Program-made: the position numbers and the translations under genes
The notes under the pieces: model-generated
What the model saw: only the letters and a program-made list of their open reading frames with translations
Database searches by the model: none
Told to the model about the DNA's origin: nothing
Shown here: one piece after another, positions 4,529 through 61,900 of the stretch
How positions within the stretch are numbered: the first letter of the stretch is position 1
Layout: every line of letters begins with the position of its first letter
Assembly: GCF_009834535.1 (NCBI RefSeq)
Contig: NC_045696.1
Span: 60,204,001-60,268,000, forward strand
Reading direction: 5' to 3'
Origin: Camelus ferus
Taxonomy: Eukaryota
Length of the DNA: 64,000 bases

Positions 4529-4566
4529 GGTTCCCACAGTTGAGACCACCAAGGCCGAACGGGCAA
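4529..4566 (-). CDS. HEG1: HEG1 exon 14 (38 bp)
   Basis: ttgcag|T TGC CCG TTC ... GGG AAC C|gtaagt; SCPFGLGGLNCGN. Confidence 0.96.
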
Positions 4567-19716: not shown

Positions 19717-20449
19717 CCAGCTTCTTAAAAATTCTGATGATTCCCCTCAGCCTATGGGCAATAGGGAGTCATGCAAATAACACTTGCAAAGGACACAGAC
19801 ACTAGTTCTTTCAAAAAAATATTCACCAAGCACTTTTTCTGTGTTAAGTATCACACTGGGCAATTTTAGGTGATTCCAAATTGAGTTACTGTACCCACCA
19901 GCTCCCTTAACCAGCTTAGATAACTCTGCGTTCCTCATTTCTAATTTCTTCCTCAAGTTCTGCATTGAACTCAGCACCCTGACACACCAGGCACAGGGAA
20001 TATACCCTGTGTGCAAGAAAGCTCCTCTGAAGAACACGTCACTATGTGATGGAGAAACGGCGGGCCGCAAACCTGGCCTCTCGCCAAGCAGCTGTATAAG
20101 CTGGGCCATTGAGCACCCTGTCAAAGCCTTGGTTTTCATTTGGTTTGCTTTTTGCTTTTCAACCTGTAAAATGGAGATTATATCTAAAACCAACCAGCTT
20201 CATGAATCTATTAAATCAGGGAACAAAACATAACAAACTGCACGGTACAATGATGGCAAGAGCTTTGTAAAAATGTATCAGCCTGTGGACAAGAACATGA
20301 AGACTGTTTTTCCTTCTGGTTTTATTGAAGATCATTTTTAAAAATAAAAACAGTGTGTGAATGTGATAGGATAATCAGGGTTTTTATTTTCTTTTTTCTC
20401 TCTCTAAAATGTTTTTTTTTAACTCATTGGTTAGAACTATCCTTTTGAA

Positions 20450-20592
20450 GGGGGAAGGTACAGCTCAAGCGGCAGAGCGCATGCTTAGCTGCATGTGTCC
20501 TGGGTTCAATCTCCAGTACCTCCTCTAAAAAATAAATAAATAAGCAAACCTAACTACCTCCTCAAAAAATAATATAATTAAATAAAAAGAAA
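20450..20592 (+). mobile_element. tRNA-derived SINE (camelid Vic-1-like)
   Basis: gggggaaggtacagctcaagcggcagagcgcatgcttagc...ctgggttcaatctccagtacctcc with A/B boxes, A-rich tail, partial TSD tatcctttt. Confidence 0.88.
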
Positions 20593-23925: not shown

Positions 23926-25282
23926 CTGAGGCTGGAGATGGCGGTCCTGCGGGTGACTGGGTGTGGCTCTGAGTGGCGGAGGTGGTCAACTTAGGAGTCA
24001 CCACTTCTACCGTAGAAACGTGTGTGGTCTGAGGAGATGTTCTCAGGAAATATGAAGCTGGGCTATACTCTTCTGTAAGGCCAAGCTCTAGTGGTCAATT
24101 CTTCTGCTGATGTGGGGGCGATGGTTACGGGGACTGATCTGGTGGTAGCATCTATGAGCACCTGGCTCCTCTCTGTGGTGACAGCACCTTCAGTTGAGAC
24201 TTGTACCACAAGAATTTCGGGACTGGTTGGTAGGAACTGTTTTCCAACCACCGTCTGTACTGCTGTGTGGCCACCCATCTGAGCTGCTGTGCTTGATGTG
24301 GGGCTGGGGCTGGGCACTGGGGGATGAGAGGCCTGGAGAGTGGTGGCTGCCACAGCTGGAGACATTTGGGCTAAACTGGTGCTTGTGGCTGGAAGGGTTT
24401 GTTCATTGGAGGCCTCTGTTAAGGCCGGGGCCAAGGGGAGCCCCAGAGTAGACCTCACTGTGACAGCTTCCGTAGCCTCCATGGGCAGAGCCTCCAGGTG
24501 TGGTGGCTTTGATTCCGTAATGATTTTCTCGAGGTATGGGCTGCTCTGGTTCTTAGGCTCTGCTGTTTGACTACTGGGGAGCACTTCCATGGACGATGCC
24601 ACTGTCGACATCTGAACCGAAGTCACAGGAGCATCCCTGGCCCTAGGCAGGACCAGGGTAGAAGATGTAGGTGGAAGGACTGTTTGTGAGACAGACGGCG
24701 AAGAAGGGGTGGATGCTGTCAGGGATACTGGTGAAGAGGCTGGTAAGGAAGACACACGTGTGGGCGCATCAGGTGTGGACTGCTGTGGATGAGAGGAGGC
24801 CCTGGCTGCTGTCAAGGCTGATGGGAATGCGTGGTAGGACTGTGACACGGAGGGCTGGAGTCCAGGCAGCCCTGACGAAGAGGGTGATGGGTCAGGTTTA
24901 GCATAAGCGTCCAGAGGAACCAGCGTGTTCCGTGGTTCACTAACAGTGGCTGTGTAGGACAGAAGGTTGGTTGTGCGCAGAACCAGTGACTCAGTGGAAG
25001 GCTGAGCAGATTCCCCTTCGTGGGATGAGACGTGACTTCTTTCAGTCTGAGCCTGAGAAGAGGAAGAAGAATCTAAATGTGAAGAGTTTGAGATCTTAAC
25101 AGCAAAGGTCGAACTCTCCCTCAGGTCAGAGGATGAGCTGTTGTCTGCAATGGACAATAGCGTCCGTTCTCCTTTGGTGAATGTAGCTGAAACATAGGTG
25201 TGGTCGGTGTGGTCAGTGTGGTCGCTGGAAGTCCTGTGTTCAACATCTGTGCCTCCCACCTGATCGTAGCCAATTCCAGTGA
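23926..25282 (-). CDS. HEG1: HEG1 exon 6, large Ser/Thr/Pro-rich mucin-like exon (1357 bp as written; +1 frameshift near 24090)
   Basis: tttgcag|TC ACT GGA ATT ... GCC TCA G|gtagaa; ORF 24063-25331 (TGIGYDQVGGTDVEHRTSSDHTDH...), HEG1-like sequence resumes in another frame (ELGLTEEYSPASYFLRTSPQTT...PAS). Confidence 0.95.
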
Positions 25283-25967
25283 CTGCAAAGGGAAAACCTA
25301 AAGTTAGGTCAACTAAACAAATACCTGCCAAACCTGCACTATGAGACAGACTTTTAGTCTCCTATCCATGAACGCTTGGGGGTGAAATGCTTTCTTTGGA
25401 GAGGTGGCTTTCAAAAGTGAGCACGCTTAATAGAGACAGTATTGGAAGACAGGAAGGGTCTGGGTCTACAGTGAGTAGACCTGCCCTCCTGTGAGAAGCA
25501 CAGAGGCAGCAATGCAAACGGTAATAAAAGCAAAGTGGGGCCAGGGGCTGAAAAATAAGGAACAGGACCAAATTCCTTTCACATGCCTTTTCTGATAAAA
25601 GCAAATTAGTATCTGAAAAGCTCTTAAGACCTCAAATAGAACAATTGTTATGCCTAAATGGAAAAAGGAAAACCCTCCCAACTTTCCATTCTGGATAATG
25701 AGATATTTCTTTCCCAGGAGATTGGCCTTAGCCACAACGTGGCTGGGCCCCTTCACTGCCAGCATCCTGGCAGACAACACCGCAAACGCCTGGGGCAAGT
25801 GTGTGGGAGGATGTGCGGGGGCGGTGGGGGAGCCCAGAAAGCTCTCCTCACAGACAGCTTGGAAGGCTTACGACTTTCTGGGCTGAGGGAGAACGCAAAT
25901 CATTCTGGGGCTGCAAGCAAACAGACACATGAGCTGAGGGAATGCAGACAGAGATCCTGCCCGTCAC

Positions 25968-26456
25968 CTCCGAGGGCACGCGAGGCCGCCAGAGACCCAG
26001 AGGCTAGGTGGCCGTCACCGGTCGCGGTCACGTTTCCGGGCTGAGTGGCGCTCTCCGTCTCCCTGGGCGAGGTCGTCTCCCTGGGCGTGGTCTCCATGGG
26101 CGTGGTCTCCCTGGGCGAGGTCGTCTCCCTGGGCGTGGTCTCCCTGGGCGAGGTCTCCCTGGGCGAGGTCGTCTCCCTGGGCGTGGTCTGTCTGGGTGAG
26201 GTCTCCCTGGGCGAGGTCGTCTCCCTGGGCGTGGTCTCCCTGGGCGTGGTCGTCTCCCTGGGCGTGGTCTCCGCCGCCCAGCGCCACACATGCCCAGAAG
26301 CCGTGCTCCGGTTGGTGACAGATCGCAGCGTGCGCTCTCCGACTCCAGTGAGAGTGGCCCAAGTGTGCGGGCTGTGAGCGTGGGCTTCGGACGCCCCCTT
26401 CGAAGTCCAATCCTCTGCTTCGGGCCTGACTGCCAGCTCGGGACTGTCCTCAGTGG
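25968..26456 (-). CDS. HEG1: HEG1 additional/alternative exon 5b (489 bp, phase 1-1) with coding VNTR
   Basis: Pyrimidine tract ccccttctcaatcctcttgcag|CC ACT GAG GAC AGT, donor CTC GGA G|gtgacg; open for 163 codons: TEDSPELAVRPEAEDWTS...HTWATLTGVGERTLRSVT...(PRETT)n...GSLAASRALG; flanks resemble the insert of a longer human HEG1 isoform as I recall it. Confidence 0.85.
26057..26272 (-). repeat. Coding minisatellite, 15/18-bp units (plus strand gtctccctgggcgtg / gtctccctgggcgaggtc), about 13 copies
   Basis: Directly visible tandem array encoding PRETT/PRETS/PRETTS. Confidence 0.97.
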
Positions 26457-28287
26457 CTGCAAGAGGATTGAGAAGGGGAAGGCCGGTCAGTGCAGGGGTG
26501 GAGTTGGGCTGGGTTAGCCAGAAAGTGTCCCCACTCTTGCTCAGGGTCTATCTGAAACTGACAAGGTGAAAAACCAAAATGTGTGCCGCCCCTGCAGATG
26601 CATCAGTGACTGAAAGCTCGGGAGGCACTGCGGGATCAGCATATCTGCCCAGGTGGCCTGGATTTATGCAAAGGCTTCTAACTTCAGAGAACGGGATCAA
26701 TACTGTATTTCTGCTCTGTGATACATAATAAATAGAGTTTATGTCAGGGAAACGAGGTGGCAGCGGGGGAGGTGAACAGTGGGCAATAGACTGACAACCC
26801 TGCTGGGTGGGGCTTTAGACCTGACAAGTCCCTGGGAGGGAGGCCGGTATCCCCCCGTAGGCTTTACCTCCTGGTGGGACCAGCGAACCAGGACCTGACA
26901 CAGGGCCTGTCATTCTACCGTGGAGGCCTTTGCCTGAGCATAGCAGTGAAAAATGGCATTGTGTTCGGAGGTTACAGGTGGGCTTGGCTTTTGTTTCATT
27001 TTGTTTTTTTAATGTATTTGTTTTATTTCCTTGGTGGGGATGGAACAGGTGACACATGAATAAATACCCTTCTCCTCCTTCCTTGGGTATGTTTTATGCT
27101 ATAAACTTAAAGAATCTTAGGTTAGTCTATTAAATTATCAAACAAACCATCCTTTTCAGAAATGATGGAAATGCAGTACAATTATCCTTGGCCTAAATAC
27201 TTCATAATCTGGCTCTAATGAGAAAAACAGGCTCTTTCCTAATTCTTATTCCTATTCCCAGACCAGACTAGTCCTTGATACCCCATGGACCTATGTTTCT
27301 GGAAAATGGATGTAAAGCTGAGTGAGAGGTAAGTTCACTTCATGGTAGGTTTGCACTGATGGACAGGCAGGAATGAGCATGGGGACAGGGACACAGTGAC
27401 CTGGGCAGCACTGAGAGAGCCAGCACCCAGTCAGGATGTGATCTGACCCAGGCTGAAAACCCATGGAAAGTCCGCCAGGAGAGGCTGGAGAGTCAAGCAT
27501 CCCTGAGCACAACTTCCCTGGCAGAGAGGACAGGCTCCGTTACACAAAACTTAGGCCAATAACCCTGTTAGGCTGACAGACTTCGCAGAGTCATGACCTG
27601 AAACAGAGAGGCTGCACCTGAACCCGGAAAAACGAATGAACCAAGAACTCTGAAAAGCTGGATGGCAGAGTCAGTCAGCTTAGAGAGATTCCAAGGAGAA
27701 GTGAGAAAACATTATGTTAACCCAGAGTGAGATGGTTTCAGGAATGAGGCTATTCCTTATTTAGTGCTTCATAACTGAACTCCAAGGTCCACTCACACTG
27801 AGACCACATTTTCCACACAACCCCACTGCACACTGACTGCAGAGTGAAGAGTACTGAAGAGACAGAAGGAGAGCCTTCGAACCTATGCTTCTGATCTGAG
27901 AAGGTAAAAATTCTGAACCCCAAAGTGGTAGGGTGGAAGAGGGTTCCTTTTGTCTAGAAGACAGCTAACGTGCTTTCCAGGCATAAACACCCTCCACCCA
28001 TATGTGTGGTATTCTTTCATGACGCAGCATATGCTTTTCCACGTCACATCAGTAGTAATAAGTGCTGATTTTCCTCATCAGTCAGGATGCTCCTATGGGG
28101 GAGACAGAGCTTCTGACATTAGTGGTGGAGAGATAAGAATTTAAACCTATTATATGCTTAAATGATAAGTTACTGCATTTTTGCTTCGGTCAGCATACAA
28201 TTTACATTGCTAAGGCTGCTGAGAATTATTTTTTAAAACTACCCAAAAACATTATTAAAAAGGAACATCGAAGGAAAATCTTTCTCA

Positions 28288-29230
28288 AATTGATAAATTG
28301 GACTTCATCAAAATTAGAAAATTTTGTGATGCAGATGGTAACATCAAGAAAGTGAAAAGACCACCTACTGAATGGGAGAAAAGTTCTCCGCAAATGGTGT
28401 ATCTGCTACAGGACTCGTATCCAGAATATACACTACCTCTTACAATTCAGTGAAAGAAAGCTAAATAACCCAATTTAAAATAGTGGTCAAAAGATCTAAA
28501 TAGACTTTTCCAAAGAAGATATACAGATGGTGAGTGAGCACATGAAAAGATGCTCAACATCATTAGTAAGCCTGGGAAAACTGCAAATCAAAGCCACTTG
28601 CCATACCACTTTGCACCCACTAGGATGGCTAGAATCCGAAAAGCTGGACAAGCTGGTGGTAAAAATGCTGAGAAACTAGAACCCTTGTATTTGCTAATGG
28701 GAATAAAAAATGGTGCAGCCACTTCGGAAAACAGTTCAAATCTCTCTGCAAGAGATTTGAAGACATACGGGCATACAAAAACTTGTAGCTGAATGTTCAC
28801 AACAGTACTGTTCATAAGAGCCAAAAGGTGGGGCCAACCCACACATCCAGCGATCCACAAAAGCATAAACCAAATGTGCTGCATCCAGACAATGGAGCGT
28901 TACTTGGCCATACAAAGGGATGAAGCACTGCCACGTGCCACAACACAGATGAACCTTGGAAACACTACACTTAGTGGAAAAAAAAGAAGGCCACATACTG
29001 TATGATTCCATTTATAAGACTTGTCTAGAAGAGCAGGTCCATAGAGACAAAAAGTAAATTCATGGTTGTCAGAGGCTGGGAAGAGGAGAGAATGGAAAGA
29101 GACCAGCACAGGGTTTCTTTTTGGTGTTTCAGGAAATGTTCTGGAATTAGATAGCAGTGACGGTTGCACAACTTTGTGAATATACTAAGAACCACCGAAC
29201 TGTACACTTCAGTAGGTGATATTTTCACCT
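28288..29230 (+). mobile_element. Old L1 (L1MB-like) ORF2 end and 3'UTR fragment
   Basis: aaattggacttcatcaaaatt, catgaaaagatgctcaacatcattag, gatgaaccttggaaacactacac, ggttgcacaactttgtgaatatact. Confidence 0.88.
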
Positions 29231-29528
29231 TCCAGAAGCTGTGTGATTGAGGCAGGTGTGGGCGTGCGGGGTGGGCTGTAGGGAGCAGAAGGACACAGAC
29301 AGAGAAGTCCCTGAGCTGTGCGTGGGAGGGGCAGGCGGCCACAGCAGCATCTTGGAGACATAAAAGAAACAATGGGGATATACTGCTATATGTGTATCAA
29401 CAGCTGGAAGGAAGGCCTGGGAATAATGAGGGGCCTGCAGGAGCTGTTTCATTAATGCTGCAGAAGGCCCTGGCCTGGTAGGCCCCCCTCCCTTCAGTGG
29501 GGTGCGGCTCTGTGAAGTGGAGACTCAC

Positions 29529-29882
29529 TCCAGCGTTCCCCACGTGGTGCCCAGGAGTCCAGGCTTTCTGAGGAAGATGAAGATGAAGACAAGGACTCGG
29601 TGGCCGGCTCAGAGGAACTCCTGTCACCCAGCGCTGTGTCACTTCCTCTAGACTGTGGGGCAGAGGCCGAGAACTGGCTCCAAACTGAAGAGTTCACAAC
29701 TTGAGGATGGGAAGTAACACTTCTGGTCACATCTGTGAACGTCCCTCGGTTGGTGGAGGACCAGTGGGCCGTGCTCTGTCCCCCTCTGACCGACGGGGCT
29801 GGCCGAGGCGCAGTCTCAGTCTGAGACACAGGGCTTCTACTCCCTGCCTCAGAGCGGCTGGCAAGCTGGTGTCCTCCTGAGG
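29529..29882 (-). CDS. HEG1: HEG1 exon 5 (354 bp, phase 1-1)
   Basis: ttttcag|CC TCA GGA GGA CAC CAG ... CGC TGG A|gtgagt; SGGHQLASRSE...SQTET...ALGDRSSSE...APRGERW. Confidence 0.94.
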
Positions 29883-30127
29883 CTGAAAAGTGTCAGAGAG
29901 AAAAGGCCATGATGTGGACATCAGGGAGATCCCTCCACAACCGAGGCGCGAGTCTTCCCTAAGAGAAGGTTCCCTTTGCAAGGACCTTATGTAGTATTTC
30001 CTAAATGTGTAACCTGACATGCACTTTCATGTTCTAAGTTATTATTTCAAAACTCTTCAGTGTCAGGAAGAGAACAATGCCAAAAATAAAAGATGGTGAA
30101 TACGGAAGCTTTTAAACACCATGTGCA

Positions 30128-30260
30128 GGGGGAGGGAATAGCTCAGTAGAAGAGTGCATGCCTAGCATGCACTAGGTCCTGGGTTCAACCCCCAGCACCT
30201 CCATTAAAGTAGATAAGTAAATAAATAAACCTAATTACCTCCTCCCTCTCAAAATAAAAT
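30128..30260 (+). mobile_element. tRNA-derived SINE (camelid Vic-1-like)
   Basis: gggggagggaatagctcagtagaagagtgcatgcctagc...gggttcaacccccagcacctcc, tail aaacctaattacc, TSD-like catgtgca. Confidence 0.88.
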
Positions 30261-30960
30261 AAACTGCATGTGCAAAGTAGCAGAGCAACTTATAGGCTTG
30301 AGGGGTTTATTCTCTTTCCCCCAAAACATGGGTGAGTATGTGGGAATGAGTATGTTGCTGTGTCCGTCAAACACAACGTGCCCAAATAGAGTCCTTCTAG
30401 CATTTTTCTAGGATGGTTGTACTATTAATAAAGATTATTCAAATTTTCAAGTAGAGCAAACAAAAAACTGTAAGGGTACACTAAAACCCTCAATTTGGGG
30501 AATAGATGTATATGTTTTATATATTTGTAAATATATTTATAGTTTATGTATGGTGATCTGCACATGAGATAGCTGAAGCTAGCGTTAAAGAGCGGGCCAG
30601 CTCTCAGTGTGAAGGTGACACTGCAGGTGACGAGATCCATCAGCAGCGGAAGCTCCGAGCCTGGGTCTCAGTGCTGCGTGAAGGAGCTGGTGAGCGCGCA
30701 CCCACTGCTCAAACTCGCTGAGCCTGTTTCCTCTCTACAAGAAAGCAGGAGGAATGATGTCTGCTTGACTAATTTCACAGTGTTGTCATAAGGAAAATCA
30801 AGTGAGATAATGGGGTATACCAGATAAAGGAGACGGTGTTACCCAAGAACACAGGCTTTTTTTTTTCCTAGAGACTGCAAATGGTCTTGAAGTGATTACT
30901 TGAGAAAATTCAACAATTTAAAAATGTTCATAATAAATCAAAAAAAGATCGAAGACTTAC

Positions 30961-38686: not shown

Positions 38687-38975
38687 CTAAGGTGATGCTC
38701 TGGGAAGTCAGAGCTGTGGGTCTCTCAGCCCCAACAGGGGAAATGGTGAAATTTGTTGTCCTCGAAGAGTCATTTCTTCCTCTAGCAGCTGCTGTTTCAG
38801 TTTGTGGAGTGAAGTTTTCTGGAGCATCTGAAGAAGCGTGCCTCTTTCTGGGGGTCTGAACCATCACATCCCTCTTTGGAGACCACTGTTGAAAAGTCCA
38901 CTTGATTCTGATCAAAGGTTATGTTTTCTATGTGGGGTTCAGTGTTGCCTTCTGGCCAGTGGTTCCCTGCAGCAG
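38687..38975 (-). CDS. HEG1: HEG1 exon 2 (289 bp as written; contains a +1 frameshift near 38870)
   Basis: Acceptor atttcag|CT GCT GCA GGG AAC CAC TGG CCA GAA, donor TTA G|gtgagt; ...HWPEGNTEPHIENITFDQNQVDFSTVVSKE in one frame, VMVQTPRKRHASSDAPEN...ALTSQSITL in another. Confidence 0.93.
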
Positions 38976-40978: not shown

Positions 40979-41419
40979 CAGCCCTATCCAAGAGATGTAT
41001 AAAGTAAGCCACAAATGCAAGCCACATATGTAACTTCAAATTTTTTAATGGAGGTACTGGGGACTAAACCCAGGACCTCATTCATGCTAAGCACGTGCTC
41101 TACCACTGAGCTATATCCTCAGCCTCTGTAACTTCAAATTTTGTAGTAGCCACATTTTAGAAAGTTAAAAAAACAACAACAAAAAAACCCCAAACCGGGT
41201 AAAGTTAATTTTAATAAACATTTAAATAAATATTTTATTTACCCCAATATATTCAAAATAGTAACACTTCAATATATAATTCGATAGAAAAATTATTCAT
41301 ATATTTGGCATTCTTTTTTTGGTATTAAATCTTTAAAAATCCAGTGAGTATTTTGCTGGCCACACTTCAAGAGCACAAGAGCCACATGTGGCTAGTGGCT
41401 GCCACATTGGACAGTGCAG
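40979..41419. mobile_element. MER33/MER3-like hAT-Charlie non-autonomous DNA transposon
   Basis: Termini cagccctatccaa ... ttggacagtgcag, internal agccacatgtggctagtggct, 8-bp flanks ttctagat/atctagag (hAT nTCTAGAn target). Confidence 0.8.
41045..41126 (-). mobile_element. Short tRNA-derived SINE (Vic-1-like) inserted in MER33
   Basis: Reverse-strand SINE head; exact 16-bp TSD tgtaacttcaaatttt at 41029 and 41127. Confidence 0.88.
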
Positions 41420-58828: not shown

Positions 58829-58976
58829 CTTTTTTTTTTTTTTTTTTTTTTTTTTGCAGGGGGTAGGTAATTAGGTTTATTTATTGATTTGATTATTCAG
58901 TGGAGGTACTGGGGATCGAACCAGGACCTCAGACACGCTAGGCATGCGCTCTACCACTTGAGCTATACCCTCCCCC
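58829..58976 (-). mobile_element. tRNA-derived SINE (camelid Vic-1-like), young-looking
   Basis: Long uninterrupted poly-T, then ggtaattaggtttatt...ggaggtactggggatcgaacc...gagctataccctccccc; TSD ttactc(c/t)ttctt. Confidence 0.9.
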
Positions 58977-61900
58977 TTTACTCTTTCTTTTAAAGGGCCT
59001 TTGCATTGCTCCCTTTCAATTTTCGCTCCCACGTGCTAGTCCGTGCTATGTTTTCAGTCTTTCCCTCCCAGCATATGGATACGCTGCCTGCCAGCATTCC
59101 CATCTCTCTACAGTAACTACTGGGCTGTTGTAAAGGCAGATCTGTATGAGGCCCCAGCACTAAGCACAAGGGAACAAGCAAACGATACTGCTCCTTCCTT
59201 TAAAGCCTTCAGGGGCTCCTCAATGATGAGACAAACCCGGATGCCTTAAACAAGCCTCTTAAGCCCTCCACAATCTGCCTAGCCCTCCTTTTGAGTCCCT
59301 TCAATGACTCCAGTTGTGCTAGAGCCTAGTCTCCCCAATCCACCCCTTAACCTGCCGCCTTCCTGGCTGTGGATCCCCTGCATTTAAGAAATCTTAAGCA
59401 TTTCAATATTTGGGACTGTGCTGATGCAACAGCCTCCCTGCCTCTCCGTCTATCCATATCCAAGAAACTTTTTTTCCTTCTCCTGGATGTCTCCCTGGAC
59501 TTCCCACCCCAGCAGTCTCTCCACCTCTACCTGTGGCAGCCCATCCCTATCCACGCCACTTCTAAGGTCAGTAGGATCTTTTTGTGACACTTCTTCAGCC
59601 ATGAATCACTCATGCATCATTATTTCACTTTTTTTGACATTTAGTGTTTGGGCTCCCAACAGGGTACAGCAGTCTTGGACTGTGACACCCCATCACCTGG
59701 CGTGGTTCCTCACACAGAGAAAGGGCTCTGTCTGTAAATATCCTCTAATGTACAAATCAGTCAAATGTGATGCAGACTGAGTCATGTACCACAGTCCAAC
59801 AAAAGAAGGGGGAGAAGTCAGGACAGAAACATCTTTGTTTCTGTGTATGCAAGATGCATGAAGAGTGGGTAGGAGAGGGCATAGATGCTAAAAGGAAAAC
59901 AATTTTGCAGCCTCTGAATAGGTTACCATTTACGTCTCCTCCTACTGAATAGGTATTCATAACACTGCCTCAGAATATCAGCCATGTTCCCAGGAAACAG
60001 CCCATTAAGGACATCACCAATTCATTTCAGCTTGGTTGCTAATTAATGTAGCGACCTCTGGCATCAATAATCTATGGCTTGACATATAAATAGGGCATAA
60101 TTCACAACCTCCATAGAAAATGCCATTTTACACATGTGCAAAGACTTGTGGCCTCGTCTTTTTTTTAGGCCTCTACTCTGCAGGTTGTTCCCATTACCAC
60201 CAGCATCTCCTCATCCCATCTCTCATCCCAGTCCTAGTCCCTACTCTCTAACCGAGGGCAAGAGCAAGGGATCGAGGAAGAGAGGAAGAAGAACAATGCG
60301 CTGGAAAGGATCTTAGAGATCCAGAATGACTCTTGCCCCATTTTACAGACAAGAAAACAGGCTGCATGATATTGTGGAAATAGCAAATGGATTCGGTCAA
60401 ATCGATTTAAATTCTGCCTCCTCCGTTCACTCTGTGGTCTGACATGACCAGGCTTCAGTTTCCACCACTGTAAAAGGGCAATACTGTGCCTCACAGGGTT
60501 GTTGTGAGGGTTGAATGGGGTGAGGACTGCAAAAATTTTGACCACACAGGTGCTCAAAGGCTACAAGTCAAAGAGGGACCAAATGAATCTCCTTCCCTGT
60601 TGCTTCCTTCCCCGGGATTCTTCGAAGGGAGGGATGTTTATTGCAGCTGAAGCCTCCAGTTCACACAACAGGGGGTGGGAGCACAGGGCAGCCACCGATG
60701 AAGGCATTAAGGGGCTCACAGAACCACAACTGCCATCGGGGCTTTGCTTTCTCTCTGAGCGGCTTTGGGACAACACGCCAGCTCTAAGAACACTGCTCTC
60801 AGCCAGCTGGGCAGGGCTGCTGGAAGGCGGAGGAGATCACTGGGAGGGCACAGGCTCCAGGACTAGGGATGCAGTAACTGCCTGGCTGGGCATCAAACAC
60901 CTTCCATTCTTACCCTACCCACACCGTTCAGCTCTTGAGCAGGAAATAGCAGTTTAGCATTTGCACGCATGAGGTTAAAAGGATGTGGCTTTTAAACACA
61001 TGGGCCAGGGTGAGTCCCTTTCTCCACACTCCTCCTTCTATTTGGGGTACCCTCCATCAAAGCAGGAGGGCTTCTCAGGAATCCCCACCACTACCAACCA
61101 CCGCCCCACTCCTCCCCTGCAACCTTGGCCCAGACATTTCTGGAGGGAAGCCCCTCTCCACTCCCTGGGGGCTGCCTCCTGCCCAGCCCTGGTCTTCACT
61201 GCACTGTGTGATGGCTCCCCCCGCAGCTAAAGCTAAATGACAAGTTGGCCCACAACGTTACAGCGATTCAGGCGACAGCTCTGGAACAGCCCAGAAGGGG
61301 CTGGGCTCGCAGAGCTTCCTTTACTCTAGGGGGCTGCATTTTTCTAAGATTATTATTCCTTGGGCAGGCTGCTCAGCTCATCAGCGTCATTTCCCCTTTG
61401 GGTGGGAAAGTTCTTTCCTTCTGCAATGATTTTCATTATGACTTAAGCCTCCCCCCACCACCCCCACACCCCGCCACTCATCTGCAGATCTCACAATTAA
61501 TGCATGGCCCACGCAAAAATCAGTGTATAAACTTAAGCACTCAGCTTAGAACCGTGGCTCGGAAGCCCTGAGTTGCTTAAAAAAACAAACCACAACGAGA
61601 AAACGAAAACCTCTAGGACTTGGCATCCTCTCTATCTCTACTGGCTGGAACACCAGCAACAAGTTCAGCTGAACAGCCTGCGGGTGACAGGTGGGCACAA
61701 AAGCTTAACAAAGGCTACGCAAGCAAGAAGTGGGTGGGCAGTGCTGCCGTACAGGGACTTGCGGTCTAAGGCAGGCAAACAACCCACAGAATGTTAGCAC
61801 GGTTACTCAACAGTGAGAATCTTGAACTCTGCCAAGAGGAAAAAGGCTAGAAATGGCCCCAGGGAAGAAAAGGACATCTCTGGTCCTTGCTTTTGACATG

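Follow-up and report, generated by a model that had tools for sequence, protein, structure and literature searches.

The locus analyzed here raises the question of whether a dense run of 13 Pro-, Thr-, and Ser-rich units in one exon of a camel gene is a genuine feature of that gene, how such an array could have arisen, and how much it could change the encoded protein. We examined a window of 64,000 nucleotides from Camelus ferus, in which the gene of interest is encoded on the reverse strand.

The HEG1 locus and its cassette exon

A read-through peptide (P0002) of the long, Ser/Thr-rich exon 7 (23927..25282, reverse strand, lower end approximate, placed by protein identity and tblastn) matched the C. 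ferus HEG1 model P0003 with 100% identity over 98% and alpaca HEG1 with 96% identity. The named proteins among the 120 listed of its 189 matches were HEG1, with the exception of a few termed 'hypothetical' or 'EGF-like'. By tblastn, the alpaca HEG1 protein (P0004) is collinear with the window from position 38864 downward through the EGF exons, and HEG1 exons 2-7 are likewise collinear in the window. The Pfam EGF and EGF_CA domains of P0004 are located after the stalk, at residues 952-1019, and these residues map to window positions 21856-20980 at 91-100% identity. On the basis of the exon 7 identity to camel and alpaca HEG1 and the collinear map of the alpaca protein, we assign the window to the Camelus HEG1 ortholog. 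The tblastn matches of full-length HEG1 orthologs stop at approximately window position 4530. In positions 40001-64000, no 2-kb bin had a CpG observed/expected ratio above 0.48 and none qualified as a CpG island; exon 1 of HEG1 is therefore probably located past the end of the window. Intron 4 contains a short interspersed repeat (30124-30263), presumably a camelid SINE, with copies 79-81% identical at approximately 20446-20563, 41044-41120, and 58843-58977.

The Ser/Thr-rich exon 5 corresponds to positions 29529..29880 of the reverse strand (97% identity to residues 279-396 of P0004 by tblastn), and its donor, recognized from the donor sequence, cuts after 29529 in phase 1. Exon 6 was located at 25968..26456 (reverse strand), with a length of 489 nt (163 codons) defined by its 1/1 phase, its open frame, and its homology to alpaca and other mammals. 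It is flanked by intron 5 (26457..29528, 3,072 nt) and intron 6 (25283..25967, 685 nt), both of which have GT...AG ends. The acceptor of exon 6, CTCTTGCAG, is pyrimidine-rich and ends in AG directly before the exon, and the donor directly after the exon is GTGACG. The junctions from 29529 to 26456 and from 25968 to 25282 reproduce the junction peptides of alpaca P0004. These results confirm the 489-nt, phase-symmetric, in-frame exon claimed in the initial annotation of this DNA, including both junctions; its placement between exons 5 and 6 needs correction, as in the human numbering it is exon 6 itself. The encoded peptide contains 33% Ser+Thr and two N-X-S/T sequons, and a Pfam domain search with this peptide returned no match.

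A second donor-like site (G/GTGACG, 26010..26022, reverse strand), cutting after 26019, is located in frame 51 nt upstream of the main exon 6 donor, with which it shares the start GTGACGG. The C. ferus model P0003 joins exon 7 at this internal donor, and in some bat proteins exon 6 stops near this point as well. In hippo, beaked whale, and ruminant proteins, exon 6 is instead extended by three residues.

Human HEG1 exon 6 is described as an exon of 300 bp (100 aa) (PMC13503707, PMC5374711) between introns of 4,249 bp (intron 5) and 722 bp (intron 6) (PMC13503707). Both the exon 6-containing and the exon 6-lacking human transcript were cloned by Tsuji et al. (2017; PMC5374711), who reported no distinct bias between the isoforms in mesothelioma lines. 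A 2026 report (PMC13503707) cites the isoforms as roughly equal across tissues and builds the exon 6 splice sites into an expression vector. The camel exon matches published human exon 6 in its position between exons 5 and 7, its phase, its homologous flanks, the preservation of the frame, and its Ser/Thr-rich stalk context (PMC5374711, PMC13503707), and we regard it, on sequence grounds, as the ortholog of the human cassette exon. The two exons differ in that the human exon is 300 bp long, without an array, and seen in both isoforms, whereas the camel exon is 489 bp long, carries 13 units, and is known from the genome. The human exon 6 peptide in the supplementary alignment of PMC5374711 is free of the array, and the expectation of a human insert of about 100 aa without an array was thus borne out by the published exon. 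Since the human cassette is published, and without repeats, the exon 6 splice switch is old and known. Inclusion of exon 6 in camel mRNA was assumed here from other mammals.

The repeat array and its distribution among mammals

Within exon 6, positions 26056..26262 (reverse strand) encode 13 units of the type PRET(T)(T/S), identified as a coding minisatellite by a unit table, TRF, and a shuffle control. The individual units listed in the first reading of this DNA were recovered exactly as given, at 26262-26056, in one full Camelus allele. The name VNTR used in that reading presupposes variation in length, whereas a single allele length was observed for Camelus. They are 15 or 18 bp long, with a last unit of 12 bp, and form higher-order blocks of 33 and 48 bp; a partial leading unit ETT (26263..26271, reverse strand) is common to alpaca by sequence comparison. 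The array peptide of 69 aa contains 30 Ser/Thr residues (43% Ser+Thr; 62% Pro+Thr+Ser), and the presence of 12 Glu and 12 Arg makes it charge-neutral. TRF reported a period of 48 with 4.4 copies, 92% matches, and a score of 350, in addition to periods of 33 (6.7 copies) and 15 (13.4 copies), and the longest exact repeat inside the array is 47 bp. The periodicity score of 231 is far beyond chance, as 200 codon shuffles of the exon gave at most 26.

Within the array, Arg is replaced by Met once and Glu by Gln once, and the other substitutions are Thr/Ser exchanges at the last codon and a pair of silent changes. All 30 Ser/Thr codons kept their class, compared to two residue changes at the 39 other codons, and these changes are too few to weigh; the retention of Ser/Thr fits the selection pattern reported for mucin repeats (PMC9417175) and in this respect counts against near-neutrality, with numbers too small to carry this further. 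The other two sense frames, which are also open across the array, were rejected for their mismatch with the splice phase and with every homolog. The Pro-Arg of the unit resembles a thrombin-type site, for which we take Glu after Arg to be unfavorable.

The distribution of the array was assessed in 127 HEG1 proteins, the protein searches returning cluster representatives. An exon 6 anchor was present in 87 of these orthologs, an exact in-frame exon 5-7 skip junction in 30 (as gene models), and the remaining 10 were other or odd models. The 87 exon 6 carriers span approximately 60 named species (hand tally of source names) and include hippo, whales, pig, ruminants, horse, rhino, carnivores, bats, primates, rodents, afrotherians, and sloth. 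The array was found in none of them; the motif count after the anchor was 0, 1, or 2, compared to 13 in the window, and the two matches counted in rhino lie apart from each other rather than in tandem. A single PRE(T/A)E motif occupies the array position in zebra, rhino, many carnivores, and some bats. Exon 6 elsewhere has 69-105 codons (median 90), compared to 163 here, in the 72 of the 87 orthologs that could be placed, the other 15 being left out because the exon 5 end motif is missing. A scan for short-period repeats flagged 3 of 129 proteins, namely the query, P0003 with an unrelated tail duplication, and a pig model with an exon 5 duplication. A phmmer search of 1.84 billion representatives gave 170 matches, of which 150 were listed; the nine inspected were four HEG1 exon 6 ORFs without the array and five unrelated repeat proteins. 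The T-P-R-E look-alikes were rejected as homologs and attributed to low-complexity convergence.

Alpaca, the sole lamine sequence (P0004), has an exon 6 of 104 codons with ETT, one full unit, and a second motif. The C. ferus model P0003, which is an odd model, has the Met of unit 11 as its first residue and from there agrees with the final three units. Among the cluster representatives returned by the protein searches (best 120 of 189 listed in one), none was a camel protein carrying the complete array. The comparison of this exon across mammals, which the initial annotation had suggested, agrees with its claim of a lineage-specific array: it is absent from the 87 exon 6 carriers and hence not widespread, with two units in alpaca and one motif in many mammals.

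Parsimony alone would order these states as one motif, followed by two units in camelids and 13 units in Camelus, with the two-unit middle step represented by one lamine sequence. The opposite order, with an array that is camelid-wide or ancestral and a two-unit alpaca exon that reflects contraction, a short allele, or a collapsed assembly, draws on the fact that P0004 is the sole lamine sequence and on the tendency of short-unit arrays to collapse in short-read assemblies (cf. MUC13). We consider this order very unlikely. The alpaca exon preserves the frame and both flanks and looks intermediate between the one-motif outgroups and camel, and the 92% identity of the camel blocks, together with the 47-bp exact repeat, points to recent growth.

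Array sequence in public sequencing runs

Public sequencing runs were screened with 42 sampled exon words (31-mers), for which 24 runs were listed. At least half of the 42 words were held by 20 of the 24 runs, from 11 studies. A word share of 0.95 was reached by 14 runs from 8 studies and two organisms, with one run from the second organism, and five RNA runs (3 studies) had exon word shares of 0.76-0.95. The array holds 159 of the 423 distinct exon 31-mers, which corresponds to approximately 16 of the 42 sampled words. The hypergeometric probability of the observed shares without the array is 3e-7 with 2 words missing, 0.002 with 7, and 0.035 (borderline) with 10; thus, a run with only 2 or 7 words missing must hold at least part of the array. 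The word shares have no copy-number meaning because 31-mers repeat within the array, and the four runs at a share of 0.00 are no evidence of its absence.

These results bear on the possibility that the array is an assembly or sequencing artifact of one record, which we find scarcely credible. No run had a share of 1.0, the best being 0.95, so the window may differ by a small private variant or unit order, or two words may not be indexed. Against an artifact, the words occur in 20 runs from 11 studies and the array is therefore not private to one record; 14 runs from 8 studies and two organisms reach 0.95, a share with a probability of 3e-7 without the array; and the C. ferus model P0003 opens with the identical final three units, Met variant included. 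The near-identity of the array words in two organisms is compatible with selective retention as much as with a recent origin, a point against the near-neutral reading favored below.

The array sequence is present in RNA libraries, where pre-mRNA or DNA carry-over could supply words. The same five RNA runs are relevant to the alternative that the enlarged exon 6 is mostly skipped or cut short in camels, in which case the array would rarely be in protein and would therefore drift. Long internal exons are often less well defined, and the exon has 489 nt here compared to 69-105 codons elsewhere. A full-length camel protein with the whole array is also missing among the cluster representatives, but camel proteins may hide in the alpaca cluster of 5 members. 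With the splice sites and frame intact, with 0.76-0.95 of the exon words in RNA runs (carry-over permitting), and with an internal donor that sits downstream of the array, so that its use would leave the array in, we hold this alternative to be highly improbable.

Predicted origin and effect of the array

We favor the reading that the array is a recent, tolerated, near-neutral expansion of a coding minisatellite in cassette exon 6, and consider this probable. The in-frame series runs from one motif or none in most mammals through two units in alpaca to 13 units in this Camelus sequence, and offers a clean view of the birth of a coding PTS array. A single ancestral PRE(T/A)ES motif in exon 6 would have grown into the minisatellite, with a first duplication in camelids seeding slippage or unequal crossing-over in the Camelus line. 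Two features could have let such an expansion persist: units of either length, being divisible by three, keep the frame, and the array lies in a presumably unstructured, O-glycosylated stalk under loose length constraint. Transcripts with exon 6 would then encode a receptor stalk approximately 59 residues longer than that of alpaca, with a locally dense O-GalNAc patch, and those without it would encode the ordinary short form of HEG1. The EGF domains are encoded by other exons and are untouched by the array, and its net effect is probably modest and near-neutral.

Human HEG1 is described as a 400-kDa, heavily O-glycosylated type I membrane protein in which the Ser/Thr-rich region makes up approximately 70% (PMC6155162, PMC5374711). 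The stalk of the alpaca model, which lacks the true N-terminus, has 949 residues with 296 Ser/Thr (31%). Relative to alpaca, camel exon 6 adds 59 residues and 27 Ser/Thr, that is, approximately 6% in stalk length and 9% in Ser/Thr. At a stalk extension of 0.25 nm per residue, the 59 residues would amount to roughly 15 nm if fully extended. The Ser/Thr density of the array, 0.46 over 50 aa and 0.40 over 100 aa, compares with 0.46 and 0.41 in the best windows of the alpaca stalk. Pro occurs at -1, +1, or +3 of 17 of the 30 array Ser/Thr (12 at +1, 5 at +3, none at -1), versus 74 of 296 in the alpaca stalk, and 12 of the 30 directly follow Glu. By these counts, the array adds many Ser/Thr in proline-rich contexts. 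The mapped GalNAc-T3 sites often have Pro at +3 and -1 and Glu close by (PMC11402288). Substantial glycosylation of the array is plausible from its sequence, and given the difference in Pro context, the number of occupied glycosites gained may exceed what the length of the array would imply, a point against the near-neutral reading. A review (PMC10020423) calls glycosylation effects around the SKM9-2 stalk epitope unclear.

Other lineages show larger changes in the stalk. A k-mer test on the gene models revealed stalk duplications of 312-424 residues in 8 of the 127 proteins, 7 of them from Callithrix, Plecturocebus, or Aotus, and judged from these models the New World monkey duplications are far larger than the camel array. 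The monkey duplication models are P0084, P0085, P0087, P0089, P0090, P0091, P0105, and P0106; the duplication in marmoset, titi, and owl monkey covers approximately exons 2-5, giving proteins of up to 1,832 aa, and the Cebus and Sapajus proteins in the set are without it. The pig model P0032 (cluster of 16) has an exact 117-residue duplication of exon 5, either real or a model artifact. Mouse and zebrafish HEG1 are reported without large stalk blocks (supplementary alignment of PMC5374711), and the poly-Ser length of human HEG1 varies (PMC5374711, PMC4027155). With stalks of other vertebrates varying by hundreds of residues, a gain of approximately 6% in length and 9% in Ser/Thr speaks against a large effect.

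This comparison weighs on the alternative of adaptive mucinization, according to which the array is a selected, O-glycosylated, splice-switched patch that changes stalk reach, lectin or microbe binding, shedding, or flow signaling. The mucin criteria of Pajic et al. (2022; PMC9417175) comprise exonic tandem repeats with at least 3 copies by TRF, more than 20% Thr+Ser, clustering of Pro/Thr/Ser, and either demonstrated O-glycosylation or a share of predicted O-glycosylation sites above 4%. The array has 13.4 copies at period 15 and 4.4 at period 48, and by composition 43% Ser+Thr and 62% PTS, so that its sequence agrees with three of the four; camel HEG1 is not classed here as a mucin. Mucinization would also be in line with the enrichment of Pro-favored contexts (17 of 30 versus 74 of 296), with Pro at +3 and nearby Glu being common at mapped O-glycosites (PMC11402288), with the induction of HEG1 by flow and its effect on blood pressure in mice (PMC12262315), and with the link of PTS repeats in the neighboring gene MUC13 to pathogen binding in pigs (PMC3440394). 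However, the gain is small, other lineages show much larger stalk changes, none of the 30 array Ser/Thr has Pro at -1, and 12 of the 30 follow Glu. Moreover, since the human isoforms showed no distinct bias in the lines tested and SKM9-2 antibody binding was unaffected by exon 6 (PMC5374711), a regulated switch is as yet unsupported. We therefore regard adaptive mucinization as unlikely.

Quite unlikely, in our view, is that HEG1 is turning into a true tandem-repeat mucin in camels, with the dose of a polymorphic, O-glycosylated array governed by allele length together with exon 6 inclusion and with measurable consequences for HEG1 reach, shedding, or shear signaling. If true, this would be an early, splice-switchable step toward a mucin, for which the two-unit alpaca exon offers a natural control. 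The flow response of HEG1 and its link to eNOS and blood pressure are described in PMC12262315 and PMC13066811, and nothing in the available text of the literature found ties exon 6 or stalk length to HEG1 flow function; likewise, no finding of this analysis connects the array with camel physiology. Should the array prove functional, the exons with 2 and 13 units would form a ready pair for probing the role of stalk length or glycan density in HEG1 signaling, and if polymorphic, the array may serve as a camel marker.

The tolerated expansion favored here has partial parallels in known systems. PSGL-1, a vascular cell-surface receptor, likewise has tandem Thr-rich units in a mucin-like stalk; the copy number of these decameric repeats ranges from 7 to 18 across mammals, with polymorphism in human (14-16) and rat (PMC2174952). 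The PSGL-1 repeats occur in all species studied there, whereas the HEG1 array is new in one lineage, located in a cassette exon, a small part of the stalk, and known from one allele. The de novo Thr/Ser/Pro-rich exonic repeats of Pajic et al. (2022; PMC9417175) similarly arose in single mammalian lineages; the precursors described there are secreted proline-rich proteins, while HEG1 is a membrane protein that is heavily O-glycosylated already without repeats. Pig MUC13A/B (PMC3440394), a neighboring membrane mucin gene, has repeats tied to O-glycosylation and to a phenotype, but its array of 3-5 kb forms a PTS domain, in contrast to the 0.2-kb, charged (Arg/Glu) HEG1 array with no known phenotype.

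HEG1 is reported to be without typical tandem repeats (PMC10020423, PMC5374711, PMC6155162), and the premise that it is not known as a tandem-repeat mucin accords with the statements in print (PMC5374711, PMC6155162), to which the camel array is an exception. HEG1 is absent from the main text and three supplements of Pajic et al. (PMC9417175). No description of the camel array was found in a literature search at the level of titles and abstracts, with most subscription journals and bioRxiv supplements outside its scope, and public camel genome annotations may already include the array peptide without comment. The array is a real, lineage-restricted coding minisatellite in a known cassette exon, and apparently an unreported one. 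The initial annotation had put this forward as a candidate for undescribed biology, which apparently holds for the array, found in none of the titles and abstracts searched, and does not hold for the cassette splicing, already published in human. In exon 7, at approximately 25225-25195 (reverse strand), the three-residue unit DHT occurs in three copies both in the window and in C. ferus, compared to two in alpaca; from this comparison, it would represent a second, small camel-specific coding duplication.
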